From positions 32,865-96,864 of the forward strand of contig CAYVAH010000001.1 of the NCBI GenBank assembly GCA_964449215.1: 64,000 nucleotides of DNA, in the 5' to 3' direction. The position numbers were made by a program, and so were the translations under genes. Numbering within the stretch: the stretch's first letter is position 1; every line of letters starts with the position of its first letter. The notes below the pieces were generated by a model. That model was not told where the DNA came from. It saw nothing but the letters and a program-made list of their open reading frames with translations, and did not search any database. This document shows, piece after piece, positions 2 to 44,001 of this stretch. Source of the DNA: Candidatus Undinarchaeota archaeon (GTDB lineage Archaea; SpSt-1190).

Positions 2-3000
2 ACCACCCTGAACATCACAGAGATAAGATATACCTGGAAATATGGTATGCTCTTCAATGAAAGTCAAAATGCATTCACCAGGCTGAAAATATACGAGTAT
101 GTTCCCCTGATGGAAAATGCCACACTCTACATAAATGGAAACAGCAGCAGGACAACAGGGGGCTGGGGAGAAAACTTCACCCATTCACTCTGGGTAAGGG
201 ATCGCTTCGGGAGGAATGTATCGGTGTATTTCTGGCACAGGATTGTGGGCAATGAATGGGTGCTCGTGGACAACAGCACCTGTGCCTCCTGCGGAAGCTG
301 GACCCAGATGAATTTCAGCTACAACTACCAGCCGGATGACATAAACACCTGGGAATTCAAGTTCAACGCCACGAACGATGACGGGAACAACAGCCTTGAA
401 GGTTTTGTATATGTTGTCGAGAGGGACGACGTCATCCTGAACTTAAACAAGCCGGAGAATTATGAAATTGTAAACAGGAGCGGATCATATACATTCTCCA
501 CGCGGATATATGACACAGATAATCAGACATACCCGGATGGAACAATAGGAAAAATCTTTGTGTCAATATTCGACCAGAAAAACTTTGAAGACTCACCACC
601 GCCGCTATCCGCATCGGATGGCTGGCTGAACCGCACCGTAACCAATGATGACTGGTGCTCAAATGAAGGATGGTACTATCTGGGGAACCATAGCTGGTAT
701 ACCGCCACCACAGGGGACCAGTACATAAAGGACAACTCCAGCGCCGTAAGGAATTTCACCCTGATGGGAACCCTCAGTAACACAATCACCGAGTTGATAG
801 GGGAAAACGTGAGCAAAGAATACAACTCAACTGTAATAATAGAAGGGAATGTAACAACTGATTGTGGCGTGACTGTCACTTCACCAACCGCGAAGTTTAA
901 CCTCACCAATGGCCAGTATTACTGGGAGTGCACGGGGACTCCTGTCGGCAATACCTACCAATGCAACTTCCCAACATCTTCCGCACCCTATGGGTGGTAT
1001 AACATAACAATGCTTTCAAATCAGAGCCTTTATTGGGATGGATTTGCACAGCAAGTTGCTTCATTTTATCTGGCGAGCGTGCCGGATGTGAATGCAAGTG
1101 TTGACAACCTCGAGGCTCCCTGGGGGAAGAGCCCGTTCAATTTCACGTCATATGTCACGGACCAGGACAATGATACGGTGACCATCAGGTTCTGGCTCAA
1201 GAAAGGTTCAGGATCCTGGGACAATGAACACACAGACACCAAATCAAACACCAGCAACTATCTCACATATTACGAACGCACATTCACCTGCCCCGGCCCA
1301 AATGACGTTGGCACGTGGTACTTCAAAGTCAACGCAACAGATACGTCCGGCTACTGGAACGAAACCTCAATTATTCAGTTCAACGTCACCAAAGAGCCAA
1401 TCTGGGTGATGCACTACCTCGGCGATGGAAAAACAATCAACAGGAGCGATAACGAACCGGATACCCAAACACGGCTGGCCGTCAGGCTTTATGACTACAT
1501 TCTCAACACCAACCGCACAGATCTACTGGATTCAAATGTGCTCTTCTGGGTAAATGGCACATCATTCGTATCAACTCTGAACAGCAGTGGTAAAAACTAC
1601 TACCACGACTACAAACCGACCTGCTCATTCCCGGCAGGAAATCTCAGCTGGAAAGCCAATTTCTCGGGGGAATCCTGCTATGCTGACAATTCGAGTGTTA
1701 ACTTTAATATTGTTGTGATGGGGACTCTCAATGGCAGCCTCATCGTGCCAGACGGCAATACCAACTATTCGCAAGGCGAACTCTTCAACATCACCCTCAA
1801 CTTGACAGACGACTGCAATCAGACCATTGGGGATGCAGATGTGTGGTTTAACCTCACAAATACAAGAACGGGTGACTGGTATAGGTGCCCATCAAGTGGC
1901 TACGCACAATTCAACGGCACTTACTATCTATGCGAAGTCAATACTTCCGAATTCAAGGGCGGCTGGTTTGACATATATGTGAATGCAACAAGGCAGTATC
2001 ACTGGTCATACATCAAAAACTATCAAAATATCTATTTCCAGATAACGCCCGTTACTTTGAGTTCGCCACAACACAGCGCTCCGGGTGATGGCGGGTGGGG
2101 TGAGAACCACAGCTTCTCTGTGATAGTGGACCACTATGCGGATGTCCAGGTGTGCCTACTGGAAGACCTCGGAAGTGGATGGGAAATAACAGAGTGCAAG
2201 TCAATCCCGCAACCAACCAACCAGCAGGTCTTCTTCTACAGGACATACGACTGTGGGCCCGCGAGCAGCTTCGTTTCATATAAATTCAATGCAAGTGAAC
2301 CGGGAGTGCCAAGCACGCTCTCAAACACAACATCACAGAACCATTTCATCCAGAAGGATGACGTCCAGATTGTATACATAAAGGGCAATGAAAGCACGGT
2401 CAACAGGAGCAGTGGATACACCCCCTTCATCCTCCTGATAAACGACACAGACAAAGGAGAACCCGCTCCGTATGTCCAGAGCTATGATTCCCCAAGGGTC
2501 AGGTTCTTCGTCCACAATGGAACAACTTACCTTGAGGATGGAAGCAACGTGACAAACTCATCAGGTTATGTGGAATACAGATTCAACCCGAGTTGCAGCT
2601 ATGAGAGAGGTAGGGCAACCTGGTACGGATCAACAACCCTTGATGCCTGTTACAAAGCCGAGAACTCAGGCACCTACAACGTCACAATCCTGGCGGACAT
2701 TGCACCGAACATAACCTATCCAAATGGCGAAACTTTCTACAGGCTGGCTTCTCTGGTGATAAACATAACAGTTGAATACAAAGACGAATGTGGATTGCAT
2801 TACCTGAATGCAAGTGCTAACTACACCCTGATAAGCAGAGGGTTCGGAACCCACTATAACTGCACAAGCATAGATGACTACGAAAATGGCACTCAAATCT
2901 GCCATTTCGATGCGTCGTTTGCGGATCAGGGATACTATGATGTGAACATCACTGCATGGGGTGTTGAATACCACAACAATGCCACTTATCGGAAGAACAA

Positions 3001-6000
3001 GACATTCAACCTCATACAACTGTGGAAGCCACCAGTCCTCCAGAATGAGACAGTGACTCCTGAGCAGGATGGAGGTTGGGGAGAAAACTTCACGTTCTCC
3101 GTGAATGTAAGTGATGAGAACGCTGAAGACGTGAATGTTAGTTTGTGGCTGAGTCCGGACAACTCAACCTGGGAGTGGATCGAAACCCAGACCTGCTATG
3201 ACTGCGGTTCAATAACTCAACTTGATTTCAATTACAGGGATTATGACTGCTCTGATAAAGGGACGCAGTATTTCAAGTTCAACGCCACCGATTCCCACAA
3301 CTCAACTGACCGAACTGGATTGAACTTCACCGTATATGCCGATGATGTCCAGTTCTTATATGAGGGCCTCTCCACAGGAAACGATACAACTGTGAACAGG
3401 TGGGCGGGACAGTTGCTGAAAATAAGGGTCTATGACCCTGACAATGAAACCTATCTGCCAGATTCTGAAAACACACGATTCTGGGTCACCACTGATGGAT
3501 CGTCCTGGGGTGCCCCGATGGACTCTCAGACAGACAGCAGTTACACCAACGTTACCTTTACACCCGACTGCAACTATCAAGTCGGTCCACAGCTCTGGAA
3601 GGTCGGGACATTCGGAAATAACTGCTACAAAGACACCAATTCCACACTCCATCTCACCACGACAATAACTGGCTACATGTCACTCACAATTGACCAGCCC
3701 TCAGGTGAAATGTTCTTTGAAGGTGATAACGTCACAACCCGTGCGAACATCACAGATGAGTGCGGGTCCCCAACAATAGCAGATGCCACCGTAGCGTTCA
3801 ACGTCTCTCATGACAGTTTTTCAGCCCAGTGCAAACCCGTGCAGAACGAAGGAACAGGATGGTATAACTGCACCTGGAACGTCACCGGGTCTCCCGGCGG
3901 CTGGTACAGCGTGGGAATGAACGCAAGCAGGCAGTATTACAACAACGCCTCCACTATCAAGACAAATGCATTCTTCCATGAGATTGCACCTGTCCTGAGC
4001 GGTGAATATGTCACACCGAATGAAAGTCACTGGGGGACGGAATACACCTTCAAAGTGAATGTGACTGATGAAGATGACACGGTAAGAGTGAAGCTGTACC
4101 ACCGAAAATGGCCATCAACGCTGTGGTCCGAAGTCGAAACGCAGTATTGCAGCGACTGTGTAAACAAGACGCTGACCTTCAAGAGGACCTACACCCAGAC
4201 CGAGATAGGGACATGGGAATGGAAGTTCACCTCAACCGACGATGATCTCTGGTTCAACACGAGCGTCCACAACCTGACTGTGAATAAGAGGAATGTTATA
4301 GTGGAATACTACAGAGGAAACGAAAGCAACGTAACAAGATACGGCGATAATTCAACGCTGTTAACACTCGTGGTCAAGGACGCCGTCTCTAACTCCCCAA
4401 TAGGTCAGGGTCTGGATGGTGGTTTTTGGGTCACGACCAACGGCACAAGTTGGGGACCCAAAATCCCGGAGTCCACCGAAGAGGGAAGCTATCTCAACCA
4501 CAGCTTCAAGCCGGACTGCACCTATCAGACAGGAAAACAGAAATGGAAGGGCGGTGTCGATGAAAGCACGTACTACTACGCCGGTAACTCCTCGGAATAT
4601 AACGTGAGCATATACTCAATAATCAACGGAACCATAAATATCCCGAATGGCACCCGAATGGTGAGGGGCAGCGTTCTGGAAATCTATGGAGATGTCGGAG
4701 ACGAGTGCCCAGGTCTTACCAAGGGTGCAACAGTGAAATACAGGATATACAAGGGAATTGAGTTCATCCCGTCACCTGACCCGGCAAACGACCTGAACAA
4801 CGGCACATACAACGCCAGCTGGGACACCACAGGAGCAGCCCTGGGATGGTACAATATTACAATGAACATCTCAAAGGAATATCATTTCGATTATTACAGG
4901 AAGAAAGTTAATGCGTTCTATCTTGGATCGGGCACGGAGCTGCGCAATCCCTGGGTGGACAACTCACAGGACGGGTGGGGGTACAACTACACCTTCAAAG
5001 TTGAGGTCAGGGATGTTGAAAACGACGTGACAAATGTGAGCCTGTGGTATTCCAATTCATCCAGCGGGCCGTGGAAGTTGATAGACTGGCAGGAGATTCA
5101 GACCACCGTGTTCGAGAATGTTACATTCCACCACAGCTTCGAGTGCCAGGACTATTTTGACGGACCCACCACATATTACAAGTTCCTGGCAAATGACTCG
5201 AATGGTTTCATGGACGAAACTTCCCCACAGACAATCATACTCGAGCAGGATGACCTAGGATTCATAATAGAATCTGGATCAGGGGCCAGCATAGACAGGG
5301 AAGGAATCAACCCGTTTACATTCATAGTCAGCATAAACGACACAGATGCTGGAAAACTCGTTGGGGAGGGATTAAATGGCAGTTTCTACTTCACATACGA
5401 TTCCACGGAATTTGATGCAGGTCACAACACGACAACCAACGCCACCGGACAGATTCTCTACGACCACGACCCGAACTGCACATACACCACAGGGGTCCAG
5501 CTGTGGTATGTATCAATGCATGACAATGCCTGCTACAAGGACACGGATATGGGAACAAGCACATATTCCGTGATAGGCCAGCTAAAGAACAACATAGACA
5601 TTCCTATATTTGGTTCGGAGTTCAACGTCACGAACCGGATACTTATAAGATTCAACGTAACATCGGACTGTGAAGAGGAAGGAGGAATAAATGACACCAG
5701 CTCTGTGGAAATAACACCGAAGCATAATGGCACAGGAACGGAATACTCCTGCAGCGAGAATAATGAAGGTGATGGTTACTACAACTGCAGCTGGGACAGC
5801 ACAGGAAAACCGGAAGGAAACTACACCATAATTCTTCAGAGTTCCAAGGGCTCCTACAATTCCAACACCACAATACTGATGAACTGGTTCTGGCTGGAAA
5901 ATCTACCAACAAACTACACCCGCCAGTGGGTCAGCCCCAGCACTGGAGGTTGGGGTGAGAAATTCCAGTTCAACGTAACCGTGAATGACACGGAAGGGGA

Positions 6001-27000: not shown

Positions 27001-28387
27001 AGGGAGATATGTCGTTCAGGCAACCGCAAGCTACTGGTATGGCAGGAAATTCGCTCTGAGCACTGACAGCTTTGATGTTGTGATAGAACCGGCGCCCATA
27101 ACAGCAGTCAGAAGAATCTTTTCATCCTGGGTCACATGGGTGATATTCTTCATGCTGGCACCCATTGTATACTTCGCATACAGGTGGCTCTATCCATACT
27201 GGGTTAAGTGGAGGGAGAAGCAGAAATCCAAGCAGAGATACACCATGCCCATCGACATGGAAGAGCTTCCGAAAGAGGGACCGAGCTCCGTCAAGGTCGG
27301 GAAGCTTGCCGGGACGGATACTGATGCCTGGTTCGACCTCGATGACCTGATGACTCACGCCATAGTGGCGGGAGCCACAGGGTCCGGGAAGACCGTTTCG
27401 GCGATGGTGATAGCCGAGGAAGCACTGAAGAAGGGTAAGGCACTGGTGGTGTTCGACCCGACAGCCCAGTGGAGCGGCTTCCTTGCACCGGACAAAGACA
27501 AGAAGATGCTCAAGTTCTTCCCCAAGTTCGGGATGAAAGAAGAGGATGCGCGCTCATTCAAGGGGCTGATATTCGAAATAACTGACCCGGCACAGATATC
27601 CACAATAGACTTCAAAGAGTGGATAAGGCCCGGGGAAATAACGGTGTTCACACTCAACAAGCTCACAACCAGTCAGTTCGATGACGCCGTCAGGAATATC
27701 ATAACCACATTCTTCAACCAGGTCTGGGAGGAAAGTGCCGAGCTGAAAGTCCTGATTGTCTTCGACGAAGTTCACCGCCTGCTGGAGAAATACGGAGGTA
27801 AGGGTGGGTATGTTGCACTTGAAAAGGCTGCCAGGGAGTTCCGTAAGTGGGGCCTTGGAATGATGATGATATCGCAGGTCCTGAGCGACTTCAAGGAAGC
27901 TGTGAAGGGTAACGTGCTCACAGAGGTCCAGATGCACTCGAAGGGTCCGGACATAGAGCGTGTCAGGTCAAAGTATGGTGACGAATTCGCCGAGAGGCTG
28001 CTCCGCCAGGAAGTTGGTGTGGGCTTCGTCCAGAACCCGAAGTATAACAGGGGTAAACCCTGGTTCATAAACTTCCGCCCGCTTATCCACAGCCCGCACA
28101 AGCTACTTGAGGAGGAGCTCGACACTTATAAGCGGCTGGGAGCTATAATATGGGCAATCAGGGACAAGATAAAGGCCATGAAGGAGAAGGGCAAGGACAC
28201 AACAGACCTCGAGATGGAGCTCAAGCTCGCGGAGGACAAGCTCAAGACAGGAGCCTTCAGGATGGCCGAGATATATCTGGAAGGGCTGAGAAAGAGAGTG
28301 GGTGTCAAGGGAGAAAAACAGAAAAAAGAAAAACCAAAAAAAGGGACGGAAAAGAAGAAGAAAGCCAAAGGAGGTAAGAAGAAATGA
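2..28387 (+). CDS. Giant cell-surface repeat glycoprotein (>=9,461 aa in window, 5' end lies upstream of the window) with C-terminal TM helix and cytoplasmic HerA/FtsK-like (DUF87) P-loop ATPase domain
   Basis: Uninterrupted ORF of 28.3 kb. The frame is open from nt 2 with no upstream stop, and the first Met at 47 lies inside a repeat unit (NAF...GGWGE context), so the gene is truncated by the window. ~21 tandem ~320-aa units with conserved GGWGE, DxDxD, PDC..Y..G.Q.W, CYKD and YNCTW motifs. NxS/T sequons every ~10-15 aa. Ends with GA-rich linker, one TM helix, Walker A GATGSGKT and Walker B VLIVFDEVH, and a K-rich tail. Confidence 0.85.
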   Translation, partial: TTLNITEIRYTWKYGMLFNESQNAFTRLKIYEYVPLMENATLYINGNSSRTTGGWGENFTHSLWVRDRFGRNVSVYFWHRIVGNEWVLVDNSTCASCGSWTQMNFSYNYQPDDINTWEFKFNATNDDGNNSLEGFVYVVERDDVILNLNKPENYEIVNRSGSYTFSTRIYDTDNQTYPDGTIGKIFVSIFDQKNFEDSPPPLSASDGWLNRTVTNDDWCSNEGWYYLGNHSWYTATTGDQYIKDNSSAVRNFTLMGTLSNTITELIGENVSKEYNSTVIIEGNVTTDCGVTVTSPTAKFNLTNGQYYWECTGTPVGNTYQCNFPTSSAPYGWYNITMLSNQSLYWDGFAQQVASFYLASVPDVNASVDNLEAPWGKSPFNFTSYVTDQDNDTVTIRFWLKKGSGSWDNEHTDTKSNTSNYLTYYERTFTCPGPNDVGTWYFKVNATDTSGYWNETSIIQFNVTKEPIWVMHYLGDGKTINRSDNEPDTQTRLAVRLYDYILNTNRTDLLDSNVLFWVNGTSFVSTLNSSGKNYYHDYKPTCSFPAGNLSWKANFSGESCYADNSSVNFNIVVMGTLNGSLIVPDGNTNYSQGELFNITLNLTDDCNQTIGDADVWFNLTNTRTGDWYRCPSSGYAQFNGTYYLCEVNTSEFKGGWFDIYVNATRQYHWSYIKNYQNIYFQITPVTLSSPQHSAPGDGGWGENHSFSVIVDHYADVQVCLLEDLGSGWEITECKSIPQPTNQQVFFYRTYDCGPASSFVSYKFNASEPGVPSTLSNTTSQNHFIQKDDVQIVYIKGNESTVNRSSGYTPFILLINDTDKGEPAPYVQSYDSPRVRFFVHNGTTYLEDGSNVTNSSGYVEYRFNPSCSYERGRATWYGSTTLDACYKAENSGTYNVTILADIAPNITYPNGETFYRLASLVINITVEYKDECGLHYLNASANYTLISRGFGTHYNCTSIDDYENGTQICHFDASFADQGYYDVNITAWGVEYHNNATYRKNKTFNLIQLWKPPVLQNETVTPEQDGGWGENFTFSVNVSDENAEDVNVSLWLSPDNSTWEWIETQTCYDCGSITQLDFNYRDYDCSDKGTQYFKFNATDSHNSTDRTGLNFTVYADDVQFLYEGLSTGNDTTVNRWAGQLLKIRVYDPDNETYLPDSENTRFWVTTDGSSWGAPMDSQTDSSYTNVTFTPDCNYQVGPQLWKVGTFGNNCYKDTNSTLHLTTTITGYMSLTIDQPSGEMFFEGDNVTTRANITDECGSPTIADATVAFNVSHDSFSAQCKPVQNEGTGWYNCTWNVTGSPGGWYSVGMNASRQYYNNASTIKTNAFFHEIAPVLSGEYVTPNESHWGTEYTFKVNVTDEDDTVRVKLYHRKWPSTLWSEVETQYCSDCVNKTLTFKRTYTQTEIGTWEWKFTSTDDDLWFNTSVHNLTVNKRNVIVEYYRGNESNVTRYGDNSTLLTLVVKDAVSNSPIGQGLDGGFWVTTNGTSWGPKIPESTEEGSYLNHSFKPDCTYQTGKQKWKGGVDESTYYYAGNSSEYNVSIYSIINGTINIPNGTRMVRGSVLEIYGDVGDECPGLTKGATVKYRIYKGIEFIPSPDPANDLNNGTYNASWDTTGAALGWYNITMNISKEYHFDYYRKKVNAFYLGSGTELRNPWVDNSQDGWGYNYTFKVEVRDVENDVTNVSLWYSNSSSGPWKLIDWQEIQTTVFENVTFHHSFECQDYFDGPTTYYKFLANDSNGFMDETSPQTIILEQDDLGFIIESGSGASIDREGINPFTFIVSINDTDAGKLVGEGLNGSFYFTYDSTEFDAGHNTTTNATGQILYDHDPNCTYTTGVQLWYVSMHDNACYKDTDMGTSTYSVIGQLKNNIDIPIFGSEFNVTNRILIRFNVTSDCEEEGGINDTSSVEITPKHNGTGTEYSCSENNEGDGYYNCSWDSTGKPEGNYTIILQSSKGSYNSNTTILMNWFWLENLPTNYTRQWVSPSTGGWGEKFQFNVTVNDTEGDTVTCKLYVNTSDGFVYKGTDTITGTAGIDTVGNCSVEVNDFSCGEQGTAEFKWEITDGTASNPLNTTVTSGPTIEQDDTVTEYLLGNGSYVNRSGGVTELILRINDTDRGIYVQSNGTVWVYDGSYFPWSNRSNSTGHLKIEFTPDCSYSAGLWNWVGGAHGDDCYKDSNVSGYLVVNITGWMNTNVINPDGEKFLRGTNITIWANVSDECNNSVVGVALNFTMRSDQTGSLYYCAPIYDEGTGYYNCTFNTSGMDTQWYDIISNSSRQYFNPASDTKDNAFWVETAPFLFAPLVDPGVGGWGETFSPKVNVTDYDYDDLTVTCEKRKNGTSTWYSCGAQGKKGINQQAVFSTTFSSADIGNWTIRFNVTEDDGDIWNDTIETNFTLEKDDTEIHYVDGNESSVNRVSGIAQLKLKAVDTDNSGQQISSQPAAIWVTTDGSTWGSAWTTSTLTDGTISVDFNPGCEYDVGKQKWRGGLRLNDYWKMSNSSEFNVTITSEAKPYIIKPKSKIALRGVNDIELKGNLTDLGDCGLVSGGSLSFFVPSENYYECSATDLGNGNYSCTIPAATTGSWAYGWHNLTFNGTREYFAVYNDTVVDSFYLADDPELINPHVSQSSVPWGTQLNFDVTLIDLDPDNKTVYFWIKRPGQDWKLENSTLYVGATDGDGELIQFPFMTNCSDVGTDYFKFNVTDTSGYNDTTSGTDQFTIQEHGALLIIEGGAGDDVRREGDNFANLSVRVRDQTTAEYVGAGVNGSFWIPNKTENETIFVQTNGSGYFNYQFNPNCTHDIGTLNWKVGVVNDMCYVDVNTSSTVNVYGQLKNNLLLPAYDDSYNVMDPVPVRFNVSTDCPGEGLVENATTTVEMVSPGSGAFACTPVHNESGGWYNCTWDSTGMEEGYWDIRLNSSNEYFDDNSSTYGNWFWLENVPVTAENSTVWVMNWTVGGWESANLSERHGWTREFNFTINVNDTEGDNVTCRLWIKHNSTGEWSIAGSDAIQGTPGIPTQGECNVSYQGFSCADIGTNDFLWELQDGETANYWNTSIESLKLRESETNITISAGDGMQIDRNYETLPMTVFVFDKDNNEWTSGVNVSFWVSHDNLNPELDTVKKTSAGNATYWFSPDCSYTVGIQNWMAGVSDGCFQDVNTSQSTATIFGTQTHYLLSPDGEASLRGTNVTIRGNITDDCGNGLDDAYVNFTMTSDFTGEMFYCAPISNEGTGYYNCTFNTSGMPARWYDVTLNASRDYHHDGNESWDNSFFVSTEPILTTPKVNTSTYDGDDGPVGGYSEFFNFSVVVTDEDGDTVTADLWLRFWNKTTNSWNSWTHEGLKICADCNNTVLSYTKYNFLCENMGTWQYKWNATDQSDNPPGEGIEYSDEVSPNNFTVEEDDILIEYYAGSGGWIWRNGTETATLSTKVWDVDDQRYLSTGEASGTIWITRDGTNWDDGNLLSVLAGFFNFTFQPDCTNNYSVGLQNWISGTTGNSCFKNANSSTHNITLKTYMTGQKDYPDGDAYERGKLVNFSYYVEDECSVGITELTRTLKLKSGTTTYTITSGITDHGNGTYTYSWDSEGKVLGWYNTSFEVSKEHYVPLNISDSDVFYLGEPPELQLESVDKILGGWGESWHFQVQCRDLEGDTDMVYLWLKKNSTAQWELRSQQSCTSTSFLILDFYDNYTCDYITPQADNTLWKFNASDQWNFTDETPEHTITIEKDDVSIEHVSGHLGNVDREGFGTVTLAVRAYDPDKLEYLPAGRSGTVYVTTDGSSWDSGNTNSTDSSGNVYFIFNPNCSYGTGIQKWRGGIEGDSCYKDSFSPDFTLTVYGQLKIALDQPPEGSTYQTTEIVDIRLNVSTDCQDEGLLNDSTVNITLNSPLDDSESCTPVNNEGDGYYNCSWDTTLKMPGYWDIFTNASREYYHHNYTQYNDWIELKNSPTQYSDMNVTPQVSGWGDLYNYSVNISDPDFDSVNCTLYISTNGGSSYQSIDTMILPGGNGTCYFEKEYSCDDIGEDNYFYFVLKDGYNLVQTDTVQGPNITKDTLSIQHETGDGGEVNRSVNSLTLRVNVTDLDKETIADDNIVVYFNITTDGTNYILEDQDNTTQGKASIDFGPDCTYDVGNQKWFAYTENTTCYYPANTSEFNLTIIGKLQNTVILPNGTEHYIGEDNVTIRVNVTDDCGDLIDAEYINFSSINQDSSQKFYCSPIVHEGTGYYNCTFNTSGMPTRWYDVEVHSNLTFHTLSTATRTSAFWIETRPTISLVSVTSEQGGSVGGWGETWTYKVNITDLDKDEVKAYLWERPAGGEFHLISPSGKSKPAGIATQIVTFTYAGYSCTDLTTSANREWFVNGTDDPSGEIKDPANTSVGSFTLERNDILISLDQGNNSMLNRSNVTNGERAKLRVHIQDTDRGSSINTQDTAKFWVTTDGSSYALDKQTTTVEPGGYVSDNFPTANKCNYDIGPQKWKVDFGETCYKPTMSDEWNITLFTNPLMVTLYEPDGGTYRQSEDDINFTGMVSDDCGGVAGATVEFKAKQGPETKSCTSINDKGNGNYSCTIPASSTSTWILGFYNTTINASKQYYNSSDVLQIDDGLKLVTDPSIENMQVSTSDSNNPFGWGELWTFEVQLYDSDQDTYNFEKVNVSLNYYNGTKWVVLNTTICSAPDCATTSFIDFYRYFTCDNIGTDIPFSFTAEDYWGYKTTYNFTQTITKDDAEITITLQPSSVDREGGMETLQARVFDKDHFVYPGTGVNTSFEVTYDGSNFDTPVYKATDSGSYASYDFNPNCSYGVGQQTWKVSVLTDRCYSSSFLGSPSAFITVLGQLKNNLMEPENGSSFNILVDSVFLRLNISTDCQGEGLQENATTTIELISPYGQVYNCTPVKNETGGYYNCTWDTTGKAEGWWDVRLNSSKQNYNKNSTTYCDRFWLENSPPTTQNETIRVFNYSSGSWYNSLTGAWSALYNYSINVTDFEGDEINCSLWISKDNGTSWEMVGYDFHSATYGTTNNVYCSVVYQGFDCGDIDTPENGSWIPEKAKKFKWTIMDSTPGNTYNTSYRWGPNVTEARARIEHMEGNNSLFIRNQDTKPLVVNVFDLDKNASATSNVSFWVTTDASSFRLELTNRSGPDGNATYWFAPNCDHLVGPSYYYQKWKAMINDGCYLEKNTTEFQYRLVGFLSPQITATRNETLDARTIFLRGTNVTVNISVDDECSVNVDNVEMNVSLVSQYGNTFTCSPIDELGSGEYSCEQNTTGMPARWYNITASFTYQPWYLDANASKTSPMSGYGYGAFFIETKPILSLEKVNTSNYDGDDGPVGGYSELFNYTVRVTDEDGDQVKVQLWYSKWLDPGWGDWEKLLTTSTSSGGSGVNFATCTDCNNTLVWLAKDNYLCSEMSKYRFKINATDEIGSPGGYDSESNTYGYETSDHNYTVEEDDVEVLHSKGNGSTVWRNGTASTTLETYVFDIDDQSNLSVGEARGRLWMTKDHSNYEFISTLDLQGSPGETGYFTYDFYPDCTYDVGKQKWIVETAPMPGTTCYKFVNSSEFETTPRGFLNMTINLPDGEYVERYEDNVTVDFYVYDDCNQGKSGTVTQIRFIHPQETYIIYDASITDHGNGTYTYVWDPDVGGAKIGQYNISIDSDYENYYDPYYENTTGFKEKAFWIQTRPSLWSPTVFSVDDGGWGETWTYQVYCRDEDYDNISLLLWKKKDSSSEWVLIDTKYCQYSGIDGTIISFQNNYFTCDDVTPEGEQTLWKINTTDPWNFNQSTGDQTQTIHKDDVSVFPYYPTKTEISREGPDNTTFKFSISDTDRGNAPVGANISSVAWVTSNIASESGDWTVVSLNKTVSDSSVTFLFNPNCSHNASYLLWKGGTFNDSCYKDANFSTSFYSSKSKIHVIGQLKNFINHPPNGSKFFVGELINFTFNVTDECYSNWGPIENATVNFSIILPGIQQDNYTQDDLTYVGNGLYNFSWNTYFHKGGYWDIEVFTNKTHYYANTTYFDNYLYLNNTPPLVENFSVTPAVEGWGRTFTYSADIYDSQKDNVTCKLFVTTDGGSNWEYKGEQVIYWGNGTCEINVTDFDCSDRGTDNYYRFQIDDGTEGNLRNTTDIYGPNITEDDVGVYYAYGNATNVSRKGTNYTSLSFLVTDLDRGNITVSDANGTFWITRNGVTYVTQPVVQTNSSGYVVYQFNPDCDPLYETMVQKWKAGVVDGCYVDTNLTDTYELTVMGDLTNNLDYIYKNSIPTAPPVNLTKGEEDLIADIHVTDDCGLDISSASVNISWISEYGNRYNCTVSDSGNGIYKCNMPTDAMKARWYDIEINSSKQPYYYDSLNTLQQNVLFLETRPIVTNLTCLNCPGGWGETFYFATTLTDEDLDNLTLKLFVRKPGTGFFYEMNSTNVTAPIINKTVVLSVPDTTFECPTHLGTGEFRFESQDDRKLTQSNTTNYTVERDDVRFEVSEGDGDFVWRNGTGALNLSLVVWDDDRNTTISGIQGTVWVTVNQSSWDSGKGIGTNGSGYLNYEFMNELPPGGQRCDYELGPQWWRGWVNDSCYKDTYSQNYSLTIRAELLPVIHIPDGEGYLLGDHILVAGTVSDDCPPPVENATVTYKLKRGSNTYTCSPTNSYNWTENLGWYNCTWDAGSRVKGWYDIEMQTSKAYYADNSTTKVQAFFLGEAPTLENPQVDHDYGGWGEEYVFQVIFSDPDYHSNNVSLWVSSDNVTWWLKDWKSAIGVDTTVQFFERFTCDDISSFPDGVKYWKVRAVDPFNYSDETQPKNITFIRDDVTVTPQATSNSSIRRMGTGEAYLEFRIYDTDLGVYPNESSTRVWITENFTNYSVVKSCNSTNGYCNVSWDPTCTAEAGVQNWVAGTMDKCYQQVNSTPTDLEVIGQLYLQPNQPEYHEIVNRNTTTEMNTSVTDECGNYVENATVIWYNEIWDQIASGYYANWSIAAGYELGSETINVNATKTHYDEGTNSTVVYVYGWSSITDISPESGSEFDAGNSIVVDCTVKDANIGSPIPGYSVDFFKNGTYQDTKVTQPNGVATWQWNTNTEPPSWFNISCRINDSSTMFYNTSVDTASTMIRIRRPLIFEYISTVPGTIYRNDSYNPHESNISVKVVEAQTGPSDGANVTFYNQTYSLIDYCITNSDGKCWILYNATNTITPDIYRIYLNATKDGTEPSVTNYTSVKVMGVLYLNITSPVNGSEHNKGETIDLTVDVWDENNNTITSADAYWWNETDMVGQGLSTTLNLKTQQTGWRNISVEVRKDCASYPGTECYDRAWNYSIIKINGLAGVKWVSPPSYANPPWYELTIYVPYNFTCNVYDEITGNGIYNYTTNVWYRFGTGPWIHAGTLQSNIDGDVSYTYEPNQKGDLTFKCNITDDPDKLYQAGASEASATFNVKDNVLPTIEDNYIYPTYGIEANLNHTTIYATISDNIGISATWVSIELPNGTYFTDSMVRYPDVVVDKKISDQNSTGFTHVENASEPGEMKHFNVTIHNNESFNVYFNLTINGELVFPNVTASAGSNTTVDAVENHSFSLPEPLDVEVQFFNGTGEPVNVSHVAFLDYRLSSYRYNYSYYPEIGGNYNVTIYAQDLPPESNIQSKFTGSFYVWGTTNVTAKNTPKFDVAVGITQINSYTFQLVANITNNGPANAWNVSMNITDDSWNYTEYWNGTHQQTYFYCGKIPANKSCVIPINVTIKEKTPPVVIIITSNVSWRNPDKSWNYTSDTTEVEVADTPVIEILEDELIAQAPHGMRSYLGNLTIASTGNSPVFDLEVFPVGGNLFYECPECNLILFPDSQGIMNAGTNYTMDVELDVPGGQTPGEYWTVIRANTSNAAYDDALLNVTIPWNSSWTRSPSGLGTILALLNTNDTIGNVTIKNIGNVRVYVTTYISGAGATLVTAEPRTMGISKLTSRNLTVSYSIPPDISQGLFPVQLTLRAKDEKGDDAGQETVTFTLNVTDLPPAIENIYVEPRDFEIYHDVVNISATITDNFEVSLAWLNITLPNGTFYRKYMNNTGSFYFSDYSTNITGLYILRICANDSRQLEGCTAPINLTANANTSLKFLPNRELVVDNARWLDPVNFTLNYTIKNARYSRAFNITANYSSPDGWNVYPLGVNISLLLKQEEYNDTLNIEVPAATLPGNYSFNVLLNWTNLDNTTGLNDTNFTIEVLENPLIESTPEEMKFTIINKEWKNKTLFVESAGNVIVNAVNVTCFGGVVCENMSVNITPSVLGSMPPGTLALVDIRVQVPEIFETGLYDGYLFVNGTESSDLTRLWVRVPLNISWEHNPTSIYRKLVQGESGEFGVVTIKNTGNVLTKLWLNVTGNITGYVSLNESYLEIPIEEERYVAINYSMPPTYDQLYLSGAFISENNSANITQQATSLGMMVHPLWVTIISPTQTSPTINVSNGTTINVNISATYGYSLIQSGITFNASLHRNGTYYDVNESYYYNDTDFLWHLNFTAPDLNRSTGYDLVVTGNYSLYDIAKTDREDKAVIYYDVIPPVVDLRPPAKASVNGTAMIRLNATDAGGVKDATATITFPDGNTVKSYEMHLDYIAGDTYAFSLAFNETWQEGIYGVSAKACDYSGNCGSDTGQFATFQYARFYGRTLDLEKSDETPINLTFDLYEEGTMNLLQTVYPNETGHYNETIDVRTYDIEAGFSNMSCKFYGVPIFTDVYNPVQMGRISPSLIGKGSLVGMELVENLSFSSAKIKFSYAGYEGIDTSNLAVYTCEDWVRFSGCANNSWVRSNSTVVEPGTEEAYVIVSDLSEAYALAEYVCGNDVCETPYGETTAVCPQDCPAGGAGAGGAAAGGGAGGGAAGGAAVAPAPTPTIPAEKFKPVPVEFKAPVIDITIYPGESKVFGVEVTNNMENSTTGRTYAEGPVWTLLEFQFENFTVENKSTRTVQINVVPTANVTPGVYTGDIVLEVAGIKHRIPASVAVEILEEPLLDVKVKTLTKRVAPGEPLKFEVTLINMGGTEEIEDIVVNYTVMTLEGEETTITIAGETVAVENLNRYVREVTIPEDVPEGRYVVQATASYWYGRKFALSTDSFDVVIEPAPITAVRRIFSSWVTWVIFFMLAPIVYFAYRWLYPYWVKWREKQKSKQRYTMPIDMEELPKEGPSSVKVGKLAGTDTDAWFDLDDLMTHAIVAGATGSGKTVSAMVIAEEALKKGKALVVFDPTAQWSGFLAPDKDKKMLKFFPKFGMKEEDARSFKGLIFEITDPAQISTIDFKEWIRPGEITVFTLNKLTTSQFDDAVRNIITTFFNQVWEESAELKVLIVFDEVHRLLEKYGGKGGYVALEKAAREFRKWGLGMMMISQVLSDFKEAVKGNVLTEVQMHSKGPDIERVRSKYGDEFAERLLRQEVGVGFVQNPKYNRGKPWFINFRPLIHSPHKLLEEELDTYKRLGAIIWAIRDKIKAMKEKGKDTTDLEMELKLAEDKLKTGAFRMAEIYLEGLRKRVGVKGEKQKKEKPKKGTEKKKKAKGGKKK
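47..20250 (+). repeat. Intragenic tandem array of ~21 divergent ~0.96-1.0 kb coding repeats (tri-domain Ig-like/beta-sandwich units) of the giant protein
   Basis: GGWGE-type motif recurs at nt ~161, ~1115 (degenerate), 2091, 3070, 4030, 4975, 5945, 6898, 7858, 8830, 9845, 10845, 11820, 12785, 13805, 14825, 15895, 16980, 18010, 19000, 19990. Each unit then contains DDV..Y..GN.S.VNR.G, F.PDC.Y..G.Q.W..G..CYKD.N and GQLKNN..D.C..EG.GYYNCTW..G..WYD motifs. Units are divergent, not identical at DNA level. Confidence 0.7.
26321..26420 (+). other. Gly/Ala-rich low-complexity linker of giant protein (AGGAGAGGAAAGGGAGGGAAGGAAVAPAPTPT) encoded by purine/GC-rich tract
   Basis: Read directly: gcaggaggggcaggagcagggggagcagcagcagggggtggagccggtgggggagcagcgggaggagcagcc. 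Confidence 0.8.
27115..27190 (+). other. Single predicted transmembrane helix of giant protein (IFSSWVTWVIFFMLAPIVYFAYRWL)
   Basis: ~24 hydrophobic residues followed by a positively charged stretch (YWVKWREKQKSKQR), consistent with extracellular N-side and cytoplasmic C-side. Confidence 0.65.
27215..28320 (+). other. HerA/FtsK-superfamily (DUF87-like) P-loop ATPase domain, C-terminal cytoplasmic portion of giant protein, followed by Lys-rich tail
   Basis: Walker A HAIVAGATGSGKT (nt ~27368-27393) and Walker B KVLIVFDEVHRLL (nt ~27749-27775). The downstream EFRKWGLGMMMISQVLSDF...VLTEVQMH matches the arginine-finger/sensor region typical of HerA/VirB4/DUF87 ATPases. Tail is KQKKEKPKKGTEKKKKAKGGKKK. 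Confidence 0.7.
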
Positions 28388-29085
28388 AATGTCTGGTGGC
28401 GATGATGCTCCTGGCCGGAACATTCGCCCTCAGCTTCAGTTATGATGGCGAAGTTTTCGTGACCCCCGGTGAGGAAAGAGTGGTGAAGATATACCTGCAG
28501 AGCGAAAATGAAAGTGGAGTTTACCCTGTCACCTGCTCCTCAAGTATTTCTGTGAAATGTCCGAACTACGTGAGGATAAACCCGGGATCGGAAACCTTCG
28601 TTGCCCTGGAGCTCACAGCGGGAATCGGGCGGCATCTGGTGAATGTCTCGATAGGAGGGAGACCAATACGGTTTGTCGTTGAGTCTTCGAACCACACAGA
28701 TGTGTTTTACAATATGCTCCAGAGATACAACAACAGTTTTTTCAGGCTCGAAGCAAGGTATGGAAAGAGTGAACTCCTTGACCTGGGGAAGCTCCTGGTT
28801 TCGGAGGGGTTCTCCCACTACAAAAAAGGGGAATATCCTGCAGTCAAAGGAATTCTGGAAAATCTCGAGACGCTGCTCGGTGAATATTATGCCTCCATTG
28901 GAACCGTGGAGGAACAGCCAGCCAGACTTGAGCTGTCTTTCATTCCCCTCCTCCTAGTTGGAGGAATGCTCGGGGCTTACACCATTGCAACAAGGAAGCC
29001 GAAGAGAAACTCCGGGGCAGGGGAACTGAGCAAACTTATGGAAAAGGAGTTTGGAGGTGGAGTTGTTGGCAAAAAAGAAGACTAA
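28384..29085 (+). CDS. Small secreted/membrane-anchored protein (N-terminal signal peptide, C-terminal TM anchor), translationally coupled to the giant gene
   Basis: ATGA start/stop overlap with the giant ORF. N-terminus MKCLVAMMLLAGTFALS is signal-peptide-like. C-terminal LSFIPLLLVGGMLGAYTIATRKPKR is a TM plus stop-transfer. No recognisable family. Confidence 0.6.
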   Translation: MKCLVAMMLLAGTFALSFSYDGEVFVTPGEERVVKIYLQSENESGVYPVTCSSSISVKCPNYVRINPGSETFVALELTAGIGRHLVNVSIGGRPIRFVVESSNHTDVFYNMLQRYNNSFFRLEARYGKSELLDLGKLLVSEGFSHYKKGEYPAVKGILENLETLLGEYYASIGTVEEQPARLELSFIPLLLVGGMLGAYTIATRKPKRNSGAGELSKLMEKEFGGGVVGKKED

Positions 29086-30229
29086 GCCGAAGAAAGTCAA
29101 AAAGGAGGAAGAAAAGCCCGCGGAAGAGGCCCCAGAAGAAGAAGGCGGGGAACCGGCAGCAGAGGAAGGAGAAAGAACAATAGGAGATATTGTTGAGGAG
29201 GAGGGGCTTGTTTCCGAACCTGAAAGGGAGTCAATGCTCAAGCAGCAGGGGACACCTGAGCTCTCTGAAGTTCTGATGCGCATTGACAGAATTGACGGGA
29301 AGCTGGAGCTCTTCAAAGGGATGCTCGATTCCTTCAACGAAAGACTCATAGAACTCAATGAACGCCTCGGGGACACCCGCAGGATGGTCTTCGACAGGGA
29401 AAAATGGGCCTCAAAGCTCGAAACGGAGTTCGAGAAAGTGGCAGGCATTGTGAAGGAACTTGACCCGGAGAAAATCGTAATGAGGTTCGAGAAGTTCAAG
29501 ACAAGCATTGAAAAACAGAATGCAACCCTGGAAAAGCTCAACGACCTCCTGAAGAACCTATCGGAGCGGATGAAGATTGCGGAGGGGAAACTCGAGAACG
29601 TTAAGAGCCTCGAAAACGTGATGAAGGCCGGAAAGACCGTTGAGGAGAAATTGAAGAAGATTCAGGAAGCGAAGACATATACGGACAAAATATCCGCGAA
29701 GATAGAGGCGATGTTCCTCGAAACGAATGAAAGGGTCGCCATGATGAAGGAAAACCTTGATAAGATTGAAAAGCATGAGTCGATGCTGGGCGACCTGCTG
29801 AAGGAAATTGAATCACTGAAGTTCAAGATAGATGAAGAGCTCGTGAAAAAGAGGGAGGTTGAGGAACTTATTGAGTCCGCAAAAGACGTAATCATAGAAG
29901 AAATCGTTGGGATAAACCCAGTTGCTTTTGACAACCTTCGAAGGAGGGTCGCGATATTGGAGAACAAGGGAAAAAGCACCAGAGAGCTCGAAGAGGAGCT
30001 GAAGAAATACCAGACACTTATGGATCAGGTTGAAAGGGATTTCCAGATGGGGCGGATAAAGGACGAAGCCAGGAACGAGCTGAAGGCCAGCACGGAGAAA
30101 AAGATAGAAGAAATCCGGCTGGTCCTTGAGAGCAGAAAGGGTCCAAAAAAGGTTGAGGGGAAGAAAGCAAAGGGAAAGGAAACCAAGTTGAAGGAAAAAC
30201 TTCTGAGCATGGGAAAGAAATCTACTTGA
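29051..30229 (+). CDS. K/E-rich cytoplasmic coiled-coil protein (start uncertain: TTG/GTG at 29051-29066; first ATG at 29234)
   Basis: Long ORF with heptad-like K/E/L-rich sequence throughout and no TM. Overlaps the previous gene across an A-run (ggcaaaaaagaag). SD-like GGAGGTGG at 29053-29060. Confidence 0.55.
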   Translation: MEVELLAKKKTKPKKVKKEEEKPAEEAPEEEGGEPAAEEGERTIGDIVEEEGLVSEPERESMLKQQGTPELSEVLMRIDRIDGKLELFKGMLDSFNERLIELNERLGDTRRMVFDREKWASKLETEFEKVAGIVKELDPEKIVMRFEKFKTSIEKQNATLEKLNDLLKNLSERMKIAEGKLENVKSLENVMKAGKTVEEKLKKIQEAKTYTDKISAKIEAMFLETNERVAMMKENLDKIEKHESMLGDLLKEIESLKFKIDEELVKKREVEELIESAKDVIIEEIVGINPVAFDNLRRRVAILENKGKSTRELEEELKKYQTLMDQVERDFQMGRIKDEARNELKASTEKKIEEIRLVLESRKGPKKVEGKKAKGKETKLKEKLLSMGKKST

Positions 30230-37400: not shown

Positions 37401-37436
37401 ACCGAGCTTTTAAGAAAAGCTCGACCAAAAGTGGAT

Positions 37437-37517
37437 GCCGGGATGGCCGAATGGTAAGGCGCTAGCCTGGAGAGCTAGTTCCCTCTGGGATTAGGGGTTC
37501 GAATCCCCTTCCCGGCG
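37437..37517 (+). tRNA. tRNA-Ser (anticodon GGA), type II with long variable arm
   Basis: Acceptor GCCGGGA/TCCCGGC, anticodon stem CTAGC/GCTAG with loop CT-GGA-GA, 14-nt variable arm TTCCCTCTGGGATT, T-arm AGGGG-TTCGAAT-CCCCT, discriminator G. Confidence 0.8.
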
Positions 37518-37518
37518 T

Positions 37519-42740: not shown

Positions 42741-42815
42741 GGGGACCGTAGTGAAGCTTGGTTATCATGCCAGCCTTGGGAGCTGGTGGTCCGGGGTTCG
42801 AATCCCCGCGGTCCC
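42741..42815 (+). tRNA. tRNA-Pro (anticodon TGG)
   Basis: Acceptor GGGACCG/CGGTCCC, anticodon stem CCAGC/GCTGG with loop CT-TGG-GA, T-arm CGGGG-TTCGAAT-CCCCG, discriminator A. AT-rich TTATATT box ~20 nt upstream. Confidence 0.8.
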
Positions 42816-42947
42816 AAACAACATATATCGCACCACCTCCGTCAACGGCTTCGAGGTGAGCCCGCACGAGCGGAGCGAGTAAGGGCGACAACGAGAAGCG
42901 GTTGATTGAAAACGCAAATTATATAACGGAAGAGTAGTTAACTGGGC

Positions 42948-43482: not shown

Positions 43483-44001
43483 CTATACGGGAACACATTG
43501 AGTTTCCTGGCAGGTGTTAACCAGGTGGTCAACGGAGTGCTCGTTTCCCAGGAAGAACCCGCTGGGTAGCTTGCAGAACAAATAGCTTCCATCAACCAAA
43601 TAAGGGGTTCCTCCCCTGGACTGACAGAGCTGTTGCTCGAACTCCCTACCCATAAAATAACCATCAACATCCTGCGACTCAGTCGGGAATCCCTCCAGCC
43701 CGATAAAATTCCCGCCGGCTATGGCAAACATCATGGGGACCCCGAAGTCCCACTTAACCCCGTACCGGTCCAGCACCTCTTTGAACGCAGCACCATTGGT
43801 CGTCTTTACCAGCTTTACTCCTTCATGCCGGGACTCAAGGTAGTTCATCAGGGTGTGACAGTGGGGACATGCCTCAGAATAAATGAGGTATATCACACTA
43901 TCATTTCCAGTCACGTTAAATGACTGCCCCATGGATTTCCTGCTGAAAGACAGGGCTCCCAGCACGAGAAATATCAGCAGGGCAAGCTTCCATTTCTCCA
44001 T
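43483..44001 (-). CDS. Secreted thioredoxin-fold thiol-disulfide oxidoreductase with DsbA-type CPHC active site
   Basis: N-terminal signal peptide MEKWKLALLIFLVLGALSF. CxxC motif is EACPHCHTL. Cys-rich C-terminal extension. Confidence 0.6.
   Translation of the reverse strand: MEKWKLALLIFLVLGALSFSRKSMGQSFNVTGNDSVIYLIYSEACPHCHTLMNYLESRHEGVKLVKTTNGAAFKEVLDRYGVKWDFGVPMMFAIAGGNFIGLEGFPTESQDVDGYFMGREFEQQLCQSRGGTPYLVDGSYLFCKLPSGFFLGNEHSVDHLVNTCQETQCVPV

Follow-up and report, generated by a model that had tools for sequence, protein, structure and literature searches.

The stretch of DNA described here, 64,000 nucleotides of contig CAYVAH010000001.1 from a Candidatus Undinarchaeota archaeon (assembly GCA_964449215.1; hereafter the window), encodes the last 9,461 amino acids (aa) of a giant cell-surface protein in which a very long chain of extracellular beta-sandwich domains is joined, through a single transmembrane (TM) helix, to a cytoplasmic ATPase related to HerA. 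We regard this protein, with high confidence, as an orthologue of the SPEARE family of giant archaeal proteins. Conservation and collinearity across several DPANN-type phyla extend beyond the ATPase to the whole giant protein, versions of which reach 13,000-15,800 aa; the largest size cited for cultivated archaea, 9,409 aa, is well below this. The motor is nearest to HerA and is accompanied by a fixed set of partners, which provides a defined gene set for testing together.

DPANN archaea must physically touch a host, and for attachment and uptake the leading candidates are SPEARE-type proteins. They have been discussed almost only for Nanohaloarchaeota, under conflicting annotations of restriction enzyme and VirB4-like secretion ATPase. 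The family was described by Hamm et al. (2019) as giant proteins, mostly extracellular, with a TM segment near the C-terminus and a conserved intracellular region annotated as "type III restriction enzyme"; one or more laminin-G domains, together with further adhesion domains, were part of how the ectodomain was defined, and similar sequences were noted in Woesearchaeota, Aenigmarchaeota, Micrarchaeota and Altiarchaeales (PMC6642349). Reva et al. (2023) reported Ig-like repeats, a TM domain, a VirB4/TraG-like ATPase and a coiled coil in proteins that they equated with SPEARE (PMC10266531). Published members include proteins of 5,998 aa (NAR1_1133), 8,553 aa (Ca. Nanopetramus SG9), 9,409 aa (SVXNc_0300) and 8,880 aa (BNXNv_0298) (PMC6642349, PMC10266531).

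The initial annotation of the window knew of no giant archaeal surface protein carrying an in-frame translocase-type ATPase. This was mistaken, and the claim of novelty fails because the same architecture had already been described in 2019, its ATPase being re-annotated in 2023. The cross-phylum orthology of the giant protein, the affinity of its motor with HerA and the conserved partner set appear to be new in the literature searched. No literature was found on DPANN together with DUF87, and nothing relevant on DPANN giant proteins together with HerA.

Relationship to the SPEARE family

The ATPase of the window protein matches the C-terminus of BNXNv_0298 from Ca. Nanohalovita (locus L005) with an E value of 2.8e-127 (phmmer). 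Besides, the protein shows the general SPEARE plan, with an ectodomain of several thousand residues, a single C-terminal TM helix, a homologous cytoplasmic domain and a C-terminal helical element. The match of the cytoplasmic domain to the ResIII model of Pfam (E 6e-8) reflects the same similarity that lay behind the 'restriction enzyme' annotation of the first SPEARE proteins. Pfam searches of the 9,461 aa available found no Laminin_G, protease, toxin or beta-propeller domains, and adhesion-type beta-sandwiches are plentiful in this part of the ectodomain.

The genomic arrangement in two relatives extends this picture. In the complete genome of Ca. Nanohalovita haloferacivicina a 628-aa match lies directly after the 8,880-aa gene, and in a Woesearchaeota genome (L006) a match lies directly after a gene of 15,808 aa, whose own product is matched by phmmer with an E value of 5.9e-138. 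Translation shows that both giants also end in two beta-sandwiches, a TM helix, an ATPase and a helical tail. The short genes (6001-7887 in L005, 6001-8100 in L006) are tandem paralogues, with start codons that overlap the stop codon of the giant gene; each product begins with a signal peptide, followed by the core beta-sandwiches, a TM helix and an ATPase closely similar to that of the giant itself. This points to mixed rings or to duplication of the core. In the window, no short paralogue of this kind is found within 36 kb downstream.

Conservation of the giant protein across lineages

A scan of one genome per GTDB species yielded at least 581 related loci, the best 80 of which were used for comparisons. 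These come from metagenome-assembled genomes (MAGs) labelled Altiarchaeota (matching at 79% and 71%), Undinarchaeota (68%), Aenigmatarchaeota, Micrarchaeota, Woesearchaeota, Pacearchaeota and Nanohaloarchaeota. With the TM-ATPase part as query, a protein search retrieved proteins 47-63% identical to it, by the hundred, from MAGs of Aenigmarchaeota, Woesearchaeota and Nanohaloarchaeota. A library of representatives at 50% identity contained 351 clusters matching at E <=1e-30; many of these representatives measure 1,000-7,878 aa and carry the ATPase at their C-terminal end.

It had been asked at the outset whether the ATPase is a separate adjacent gene in relatives. Mostly it is not, and the fusion is the common state. 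The open reading frame (ORF) of the ATPase has at least 3,000 aa in frame upstream in 44 of the 80 species-representative loci (nearly all of these frames being still open at the edge of the 10-kb flank), runs open to the contig end in 28, and is closed with a shorter N-terminal part in the remaining 8, some of which follow a single in-frame stop. A split arrangement, consisting of a separate giant gene and a short ATPase gene, is found in loci L007 and L084. In three related genomes what appears to be one in-frame stop breaks the giant ORF, leaving a long open frame on either side (L022, ~8532-8536; L056, ~1042-1046; L085, ~3577-3587), which could represent sequencing error, a pseudogene or recoding.

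The similarity is not confined to the motor. A module of ~325 aa, which builds most of the ectodomain present in the window, is found in the giant ORFs of most related loci (E 1e-60 to 1e-88), and the last 3,100 aa of the window protein align in one collinear high-scoring segment pair with the proteins of L089, L009 and L010, at 76%, 62% and 49% identity, respectively. The spread of the module and this collinear alignment together indicate that the whole protein is orthologous across lineages. The closest syntenic genome, L089 (SMYQ01000001.1, GCA_007050885.1), is labelled 'Candidatus Bathyarchaeota archaeon' at NCBI, a label that may be a mis-assignment; the loci that come next in closeness have the labels Altiarchaeota and Undinarchaeota.

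Reading frame and assembly support

Frame 2 of the plus strand is free of stops from base 2 of the window to the TGA at 28385-28387, which confirms the uninterrupted frame of more than 9,400 aa reported initially and gives 9,461 codons, open at the 5' end. The probability of such a run, about (61/64)^9461, excludes a chance origin. The first in-frame ATG is located at base 47, from which the ORF is listed (47-28387); since the translation of 2-1501 is also stop-free upstream of this ATG, the gene extends beyond the start of the window. The full-length call, 14,690 aa, is internal to the 65.6-kb contig k141_149502 of ENA assembly ERZ27248458, which contains the same locus, and corresponds to a single polypeptide of ~1.6 MDa. 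The window (2-28387, plus strand) holds its C-terminal 9,461 codons, the N-terminal ~5,200 aa being located upstream. Scans for bacterial-type promoters and terminators showed no excess over shuffled sequences, the bacterial models being ill-suited to archaea.

The same locus, looked up with the small downstream protein, is present in four other assemblies (ENA ERZ27248458 and ERZ27248070; Logan SRR35109389 and SRR7051285), which are gap-free and 99.95-99.98% identical to the window. A chimeric join at ~27.1 kb, the point on which the initial annotation had recommended a check, is excluded by three of them and by the same fusion in relatives. The reading of the fusion as an artefact, in which an assembly chimera or a missed frameshift would have joined a surface-protein gene to a separate ATPase gene, has a negligible probability: GC content and GC skew do increase past ~26 kb and short stand-alone versions of the ATPase do exist, but L001-L003, independent assemblies from different runs, cross the junction collinearly and gap-free at >=99.95% identity (the fourth, L004, starts at 27289, 3' of it), no fewer than 44 species-level genomes, as well as complete genomes already published, show the same fusion, and a shift in composition is expected where a Thr/Asn-rich ectodomain gives way to a Lys/Glu-rich cytoplasmic domain.

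The conserved core and its HerA-type ATPase

From aa 8752 onwards the protein consists of a conserved core of ~700 aa in which a Cys motif, a Gly/Ala linker, two CARDB/NEW3-like beta-sandwiches, the TM helix, the ATPase and a helical hairpin follow one another; short family members of 550-730 aa show a signal peptide and then the same order. The core starts with the Cys motif CGNDVCETPYGETTAVCPQDC (26255-26317, plus strand, as for all parts of this gene), which is also found after the signal peptide in the short family proteins P0087 and P0031 and before the linker in P0121 and P0122. The Gly/Ala/Pro-rich linker (26318-26416) leads to the two beta-sandwiches next to the membrane (26447-27079), which are kept in every family member. 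An AlphaFold2 (AF2) model of the last 661 aa, based on an alignment of 49 homologues, reached a predicted local distance difference test (pLDDT) score of 90.3 and places the strands of these two domains at model residues 16-226, with values above 90.

The ATPase core, of the HerA clade, occupies 27269-28096. It contains the Walker A motif GATGSGKT (27371-27394), the Walker B motif VLIVFDEVH (27749-27775) and, at 27833-27853, the motif REFRKWG, which carries R9281 (27842-27844). This arginine and the Walker residues are invariant in the 49 homologues, and a catalytically intact motor is predicted from the retention of Walker A, Walker B and the arginine finger. R9281 aligns with the position that we take to be the trans arginine finger of Sulfolobus HerA (R381). 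Behind the ATPase, the helical hairpin (28109-28300; model helices 570-595, 601-615 and 619-633) is conserved in the alignment and corresponds to the published 'coiled coil'. The protein ends in a Lys-rich tail (28307-28384).

The linker, both Walker motifs, the arginine-finger region and the tail all lie where the initial annotation had located them. The use of the tail as an argument for the binding of polyanions is not supported at the level of the family: of 90 family ORFs, just 8 have at least 12 Lys or Arg among the last 30 residues, and four of these 8 represent the window's own locus. The tail is a feature of a clade and not of the family.

By sequence and by modelled structure, HerA is the nearest relative of the motor, coming first by all four methods used (Pfam, phmmer, family profile and Foldseek). 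The Pfam model of the DUF87/HerA central domain matches with an E value of 9.2e-12 and 46 bits, above its cutoff of 23.2 bits. In searches against PDB sequences phmmer retrieves Sulfolobus HerA (4d2i, E 2.5e-9), and the top seven matches of the family profile are all of the HerA type, the DotL coupling protein and FtsK giving E values of 0.025 and 0.07. Within the top 50 Foldseek matches, those to the ATPase domain are all HerA or anti-phage HerA, and the others correspond to the beta-sandwiches. The assignment to the P-loop ATPases of the HerA/FtsK superfamily, already made from the motifs, is thus borne out. Weaker Pfam matches on the cytoplasmic domain are ResIII (E 6.1e-8), T4SS-DNA_transf (E 9e-8), DEAD (E 8.9e-6) and TrwB_AAD_bind (E 1.7e-4), and FtsK_SpoIIIE stays below its cutoff (E 0.0025, 17.8 bits versus 24).

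The best NCBIfam profile is CedD (E 1.5e-12, 47 bits versus a cutoff of 600). HerA_Thermprot reaches 43 bits (cutoff 800), helicase_HerA 25 (970), TIGR00929 VirB4_CagE 16 (643) and CedB 15.5 (700). The early comparison with CedB-type DNA-import ATPases is reasonable, CedD and HerA being the top NCBIfam matches, although their scores are far under the cutoffs. Canonical HerA was also considered as an assignment and rejected: the HAS-barrel is missing, there is no NurA nearby and the NCBIfam scores fall far below the cutoffs.

One subgroup of the ATPase family (P0166, P0187, P0195 and P0212) has a different N-terminal ectodomain of ~600 aa and a C-terminal extension of ~170-720 aa past the hairpin. 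This extension contains one or two copies of the pattern NG...SL.EL...L..M..D.F..HV....ND.A.WI.

Ectodomain and membrane topology

A hydropathy scan of the 9,461 aa revealed exactly one TM-like segment, aa 9039-9060 (27116-27181), in agreement with the single helix placed earlier at 27115-27190. In the AF2 model it forms a continuous helix (model residues 231-277) with the Lys/Arg-rich juxtamembrane stretch that follows it, as the positive-inside rule would require. The part N-terminal to the TM helix (at least 9,038 aa) contains 481 N-X-S/T sequons and 1.8% Cys; the last 461 aa of the protein contain no sequon and no Cys. Since sequons and Cys are found only ahead of the helix, and Lys/Arg-rich sequence after it, an N-out/C-in topology is deduced, and the original picture of a huge extracytoplasmic glycoprotein part with a cytoplasmic C-terminus is well supported.

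About 9,000 aa of repeats had been proposed. Residues 17-7054 are indeed repetitive, but residues 7055-8750 are beta-rich and non-repetitive. The repeat region (50-21163) comprises 21 full and 3 partial copies of a module of ~325-335 aa, the boundaries of which were set with a hidden Markov model (HMM). The copies are 20-45% identical in pairs, with an offset period of 320-330 aa, and were detected by BLAST of 300-aa chunks of the protein against itself; whole-protein self-BLAST gave no matches. Tandem Repeats Finder detected no DNA-level repeats in the giant gene except for the Gly/Ala linker and the Lys tail, which indicates that the modules are old and diverged. The N-terminal 4,733 aa of the part in the window had no Pfam match.

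An AF2 model of one module, based on an alignment of 20 copies, is all-beta and has a pLDDT of 91.4. It consists of three tandem beta-sandwiches of the Ig/FnIII/macroglobulin-like type, and its Foldseek neighbours are macroglobulin (MG) domains of complement and A2M and the extender of a large bacterial adhesin (6xi3). The membrane-proximal ectodomain that follows (aa 7055-8751; 21164-26254) has almost no self-matches and gives weak Pfam matches to Big_1, Big_7, MG2, MG4, NEW3 and cadherin-like domains. An Ig-like domain measures ~4 nm; with three domains per 325 aa, the full ectodomain, if extended, would reach about half a micrometre.

Partner genes

Two small genes follow the giant gene on the plus strand. 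ORF2 (28384-29085) encodes a type I membrane protein of 233 aa with a signal peptide, a small beta-rich ectodomain that includes a helical region, a C-terminal TM segment and a short cytoplasmic tail. ORF3 (29066, or 29051, to 30229) encodes a cytoplasmic K/E-rich coiled-coil protein of 387 aa, the conserved partner of the ATPase. The start codon of ORF2 overlaps the stop codon of the giant gene as ATGA, and the start of ORF3 overlaps the end of ORF2, so both genes are translationally coupled to the giant gene.

The two partners differ in their spread. Homologues of ORF2 occur in only ~10 related loci, always between the ATPase and coiled-coil genes; the protein has no Pfam or NCBIfam match, and an iterative HMM search that started from the 325-aa membrane protein of L007, a candidate ORF2 orthologue, drifted into the common CARDB/NEW3 domain. 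An ORF3 homologue lies directly downstream of the ATPase gene in 86 of 89 loci, nanohaloarchaeal and Woesearchaeota loci included, with 25-29% identity to the corresponding genes of Ca. Nanohalovita, the Woesearchaeota MAG and L007. All these homologues are annotated as 'hypothetical' and none has a Pfam domain; the sole similarity of ORF3 to a family is with the coiled-coil arms of SMC proteins (E 2.8e-5).

The operon with two small partners that had been noticed first is therefore real and coupled, but the conserved unit is larger, as the convergent gene at 30222-35903 (minus strand) also belongs to it. Its product, 1,893 aa long, is a type I membrane glycoprotein that starts with a signal peptide, contains 102 sequons as well as NEW3 and MG2-like domains, and has a TM segment at ~aa 1815-1837 ahead of a cytoplasmic tail that is SHOCT-like. 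Homologues collinear over the full length, 1,675-2,108 aa in size (E 0 to 1e-200), are encoded downstream of the coiled-coil gene, either on the same strand or convergently, in more than 40 loci, and the protein is 73% and 56% identical to its homologues in L089 and L009. The whole arrangement is reproduced in L089 (SMYQ01000001.1), where genes for proteins of 13,237 aa (the giant orthologue, located at roughly 71.3-111.1 kb), 234, 430 and 1,878 aa (the last convergent) are followed, as in the window, by the genes for cysteinyl-tRNA synthetase (CysRS) and aldehyde dehydrogenase.

Neighbouring ORFs of the 80 loci were grouped by single-linkage clustering, which merged the coiled-coil and ~1,900-aa proteins and produced several spurious antisense clusters; the largest conserved clusters were inspected by sequence. 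A MinD/ParA-type ATPase of ~255 aa is encoded ~3 kb downstream of the ATPase gene in 28 loci (for example at 13863-14642 in L063 and 10679-11434 in L007). It lies between the coiled-coil and large-glycoprotein genes in the loci examined, and many Aenigmatarchaeota carry it. In the same interval, 16 loci encode a small membrane protein of ~155 aa with an HExxH motif (HELGH). Neither of these two genes is present in the cluster of the window.

Possible function

On balance, we lean slightly towards an explanation in which this SPEARE orthologue serves as a device for contact with the host, with a hexameric motor that acts on a moving polymer, plausibly DNA. According to this proposal the ATPase domains would form a hexameric ring beneath the membrane, gathering six ectodomains into one fibre, roughly 0.5 micrometre long, that binds a host cell. 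The ring would use ATP to thread a polymer across the membrane of the symbiont at the contact site, and the coiled-coil protein would dock on the C-terminal hairpin as a cytoplasmic scaffold; the best guess for the polymer would be DNA or another nucleic acid, moving inward. Hexameric rings are formed by all characterised FtsK-HerA ATPases, and the conserved trans arginine finger gives indirect support, at the level of sequence, to such an assembly. Taken by itself, translocation of a polymer across the membrane is a tentative proposal, somewhat doubtful.

By analogy, DNA import would be the likeliest single combination of substrate and direction, although this is only a best guess. It is favoured because, to our knowledge, every characterised HerA-clade enzyme acts on DNA, because CedB and CedD, the only characterised membrane-anchored enzymes of this clade that we know of, import DNA, and because DPANN symbionts are generally thought to depend on building blocks derived from the host. 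Both Ced proteins are required for DNA import between archaeal cells in contact (PMC11868833). Cryo-electron tomography of a nanohaloarchaeon-host pair has shown cytoplasmic bridges up to 11 nm wide (PMC11001535).

Several points weigh against this proposal. Throughout the SPEARE family, oligomeric state, motor activity and substrate are a matter of inference. Each subunit has one TM helix and the cluster encodes no polytopic channel protein of the CedA or VirB6-like type; the HAS-barrel and the NurA partner of canonical HerA are also absent. A role without translocation is conceivable, since HerA rings act as scaffolds or activators in anti-phage systems, and the structural proximity of VirB4, close behind HerA, keeps protein export (the "straw") among the candidates. 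The Lys-rich tails, limited to 8 of 90 family ORFs, are not conserved. The signal peptide and any enzymatic or laminin-G domains would fall in the N-terminal ~5,200 aa, outside the window. Besides, the affiliation with DPANN is that of the MAG labels given by submitters, Altiarchaeota at 79%, Undinarchaeota at 68% and, for one syntenic relative, Bathyarchaeota.

A broader version of the same explanation would be a single pan-DPANN machine, which would build the symbiont-host bridge and also supply the symbiont with DNA or other polymers pumped in from the host. The corresponding module would consist of the giant ectodomain-TM-HerA motor, the coiled-coil partner and the ~1,900-aa glycoprotein, joined in some lineages by MinD/ParA, ORF2 and the HExxH protein. 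This broader version is considered rather unlikely. If true, the machine would provide the long-sought molecular basis of DPANN parasitism, with a partner set undescribed in the literature searched.

Among the alternatives, a protein that is primarily an adhesin or tether and does not translocate anything is unlikely. A HerA-like ring would here oligomerise and cluster the ectodomains and couple them to a cytoplasmic scaffold of coiled-coil and MinD/ParA proteins, by which the structure would be positioned on the cell, with ATP regulating assembly, disassembly or shedding. The resemblance of the ectodomain to the extender regions of large adhesins agrees with this, as do the single TM helix per subunit without a channel protein in the cluster, and the coiled-coil partner and frequent MinD/ParA neighbour, which point to positioning or scaffolding. 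HerA rings also scaffold the Sir2-HerA and DUF4297-HerA defence complexes, both of them among the top structural matches of the motor. However, we know of no characterised membrane ATPase of the FtsK/HerA superfamily that is purely structural, and the strict conservation seen across phyla, which covers both Walker motifs, the arginine finger and numerous further residues, argues for a catalytically demanding role. In proteomic data the ectodomain and the TM-cytoplasmic part of a SPEARE protein were found in different size fractions, which may mean processing and would suit a tether (PMC6642349).

The T4SS-like 'straw', in which Ig-like domains bind the host and a VirB4/TraG-like ATPase exports protein effectors into it (T4SS being the type IV secretion system), was proposed by Reva et al. 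(PMC10266531), and we give it a low probability, lower than that of the tether. The weak Pfam matches to T4SS-DNA_transf and TrwB_AAD_bind speak for it, and co-cultures show altered host metabolism and methylation (PMC10266531, PMC11001535). Nevertheless, these T4SS matches are confined to the P-loop segment and lie far under the curated cutoffs. The N-terminal domain of VirB4 (PF03135) gives no match in the window protein and is not listed for the short paralogue P0112. There is no Pfam or NCBIfam match to VirB3, VirB6, VirB8 or pilin in the four cluster proteins, and none of these is prominent in the neighbour clusters of the 80 loci. The first rank of HerA by all four methods also stands against a VirB4-like motor.

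An FtsK-like chromosome pump is very improbable. It would use the HerA-type motor with MinD/ParA and coiled-coil proteins to clear or segregate DNA at the division site, the ectodomain being an unrelated add-on. The MinD/ParA gene next to the cluster in 28 loci and the HerA-clade motor fit this idea, and Iyer et al. (2004) are said to have proposed HerA as the archaeal counterpart of FtsK. However, an ectodomain that is orthologous and collinear across phyla is hard to square with a role in division, and among the loci retrieved the family occurs almost only in MAGs labelled as DPANN-type. The FtsK_SpoIIIE match is below cutoff, and the protein has one TM helix, no polytopic N-domain and no gamma domain.

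Finally, the original SPEARE reading, a type III restriction endonuclease that degrades imported DNA below an ectodomain with serine protease and toxin domains (PMC6642349), can practically be set aside for the part present in the window. The ResIII and DEAD matches that would support it are to helicase-motor models and cover the P-loop core only, a nuclease domain is absent, HerA is what searches by structure and by profile retrieve, no protease or toxin match was found by Pfam in the 9,461 aa present, and Reva et al. reached the same conclusion against it (PMC10266531).

Chromosomal context

The remaining part of the window encodes CysRS, the alpha and beta subunits of phenylalanyl-tRNA synthetase, a thermosome subunit, NIF3, UbiA and two DNA glycosylases, as well as the tRNA genes Ser-GGA (37436-37518), Pro-TGG (42742-42816) and Gln-TTG (61781-61853). 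These tRNA and housekeeping genes indicate that the giant gene is located in an ordinary chromosomal context and not in a mobile element.

Some other genes of this region encode exported or membrane proteins. A protein of 172 aa with a signal peptide and a thioredoxin-like CPHC motif (43483-44001, minus strand) is encoded next to a protein of 217 aa with 6-7 TM helices and a sub-threshold SfLAP match (44005-44658, minus strand; E 6e-6, 26 bits versus 35). The pair may form an extracytoplasmic disulfide-handling system, suiting Cys-containing giant ectodomains. A second pair, of unannotated surface proteins without Pfam matches, consists of a 988-aa protein with a signal peptide and 12 Cys (52649-55615, minus strand) and a 360-aa protein with a signal peptide and a C-terminal TM segment (55602-56684, minus strand), the genes of which overlap. 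The ORF at 57440-59020 (plus strand) encodes 526 aa with no TM segment and no Pfam family.

Comparison with known systems

With HerA, the translocase that works with NurA in DNA end resection in archaea and bacteria (for example HerA of Sulfolobus solfataricus, PDB 4d2i), the window protein has in common Walker A, Walker B and the trans arginine finger. It differs in its membrane anchor and extracellular domain, and in having no HAS-barrel: in the AF2 model the TM helix leads to a short beta-hairpin and then to the P-loop core. NurA, Mre11 and Rad50 were not found: the neighbours in the cluster are ORF2, ORF3 and the 1,893-aa glycoprotein, which have no nuclease match, and no NurA, Mre11 or Rad50 family is prominent in the neighbour clusters of the 80 loci.

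CedB and CedD are likewise HerA-clade ATPases, anchored by TM segments and acting at cell-cell contacts (PMC11868833, PMC9905601). CedD, which cells need for the import of DNA, combines a TM helix and an N-terminal domain with an ATPase of the HerA/VirB4/CedB-like type (PMC11868833). The window protein, in contrast, has no VirB4-like N-terminal domain, and no genes for the CedA (VirB6-like) channel or the Ced pilins are nearby; the Ced ATPases, for their part, lack a giant ectodomain. The coupling proteins VirD4, TraG and TrwB also have a motor anchored at its N-terminus, but T4SS profiles match only ~50 residues of the window protein round the P-loop, and the all-alpha domain is absent. FtsK and SpoIIIE differ from it in their polytopic N-domain, in place of one TM helix, and in their gamma domain, the Pfam score being below cutoff as described above. 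Full membership of HerA, VirB4, Ced or FtsK was rejected in each case on the basis of cutoffs and of missing accessory domains or partners.

On the extracellular side, a long tandem chain of beta-sandwiches is shared with halomucin of Haloquadratum and with the extender of the RTX ice-binding adhesin 6xi3, the second Foldseek match (TM-score 0.42). These giant adhesins have no cytoplasmic motor, whereas the anchor of the window protein is a C-terminal TM helix fused to an ATPase.

The comparison with the SPEARE proteins themselves shows differences in detail. The window protein is larger (14,690 aa) and belongs to a non-halophilic lineage, the closest MAGs of which are labelled Altiarchaeota. 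ORF2 takes the place of the tandem short ATPase paralogue, and the Lys-rich tail is an additional feature. The three-domain module of ~325 aa matches the protein of Ca. Nanohalovita only weakly (E 6e-8), and the 9,461 aa available showed no laminin-G, beta-propeller, protease or toxin region. On the other hand, both have a giant chain of Ig-like domains, two membrane-proximal beta-sandwiches, a single C-terminal TM helix, a homologous ATPase followed by a helical coiled coil, and a coiled-coil gene downstream.

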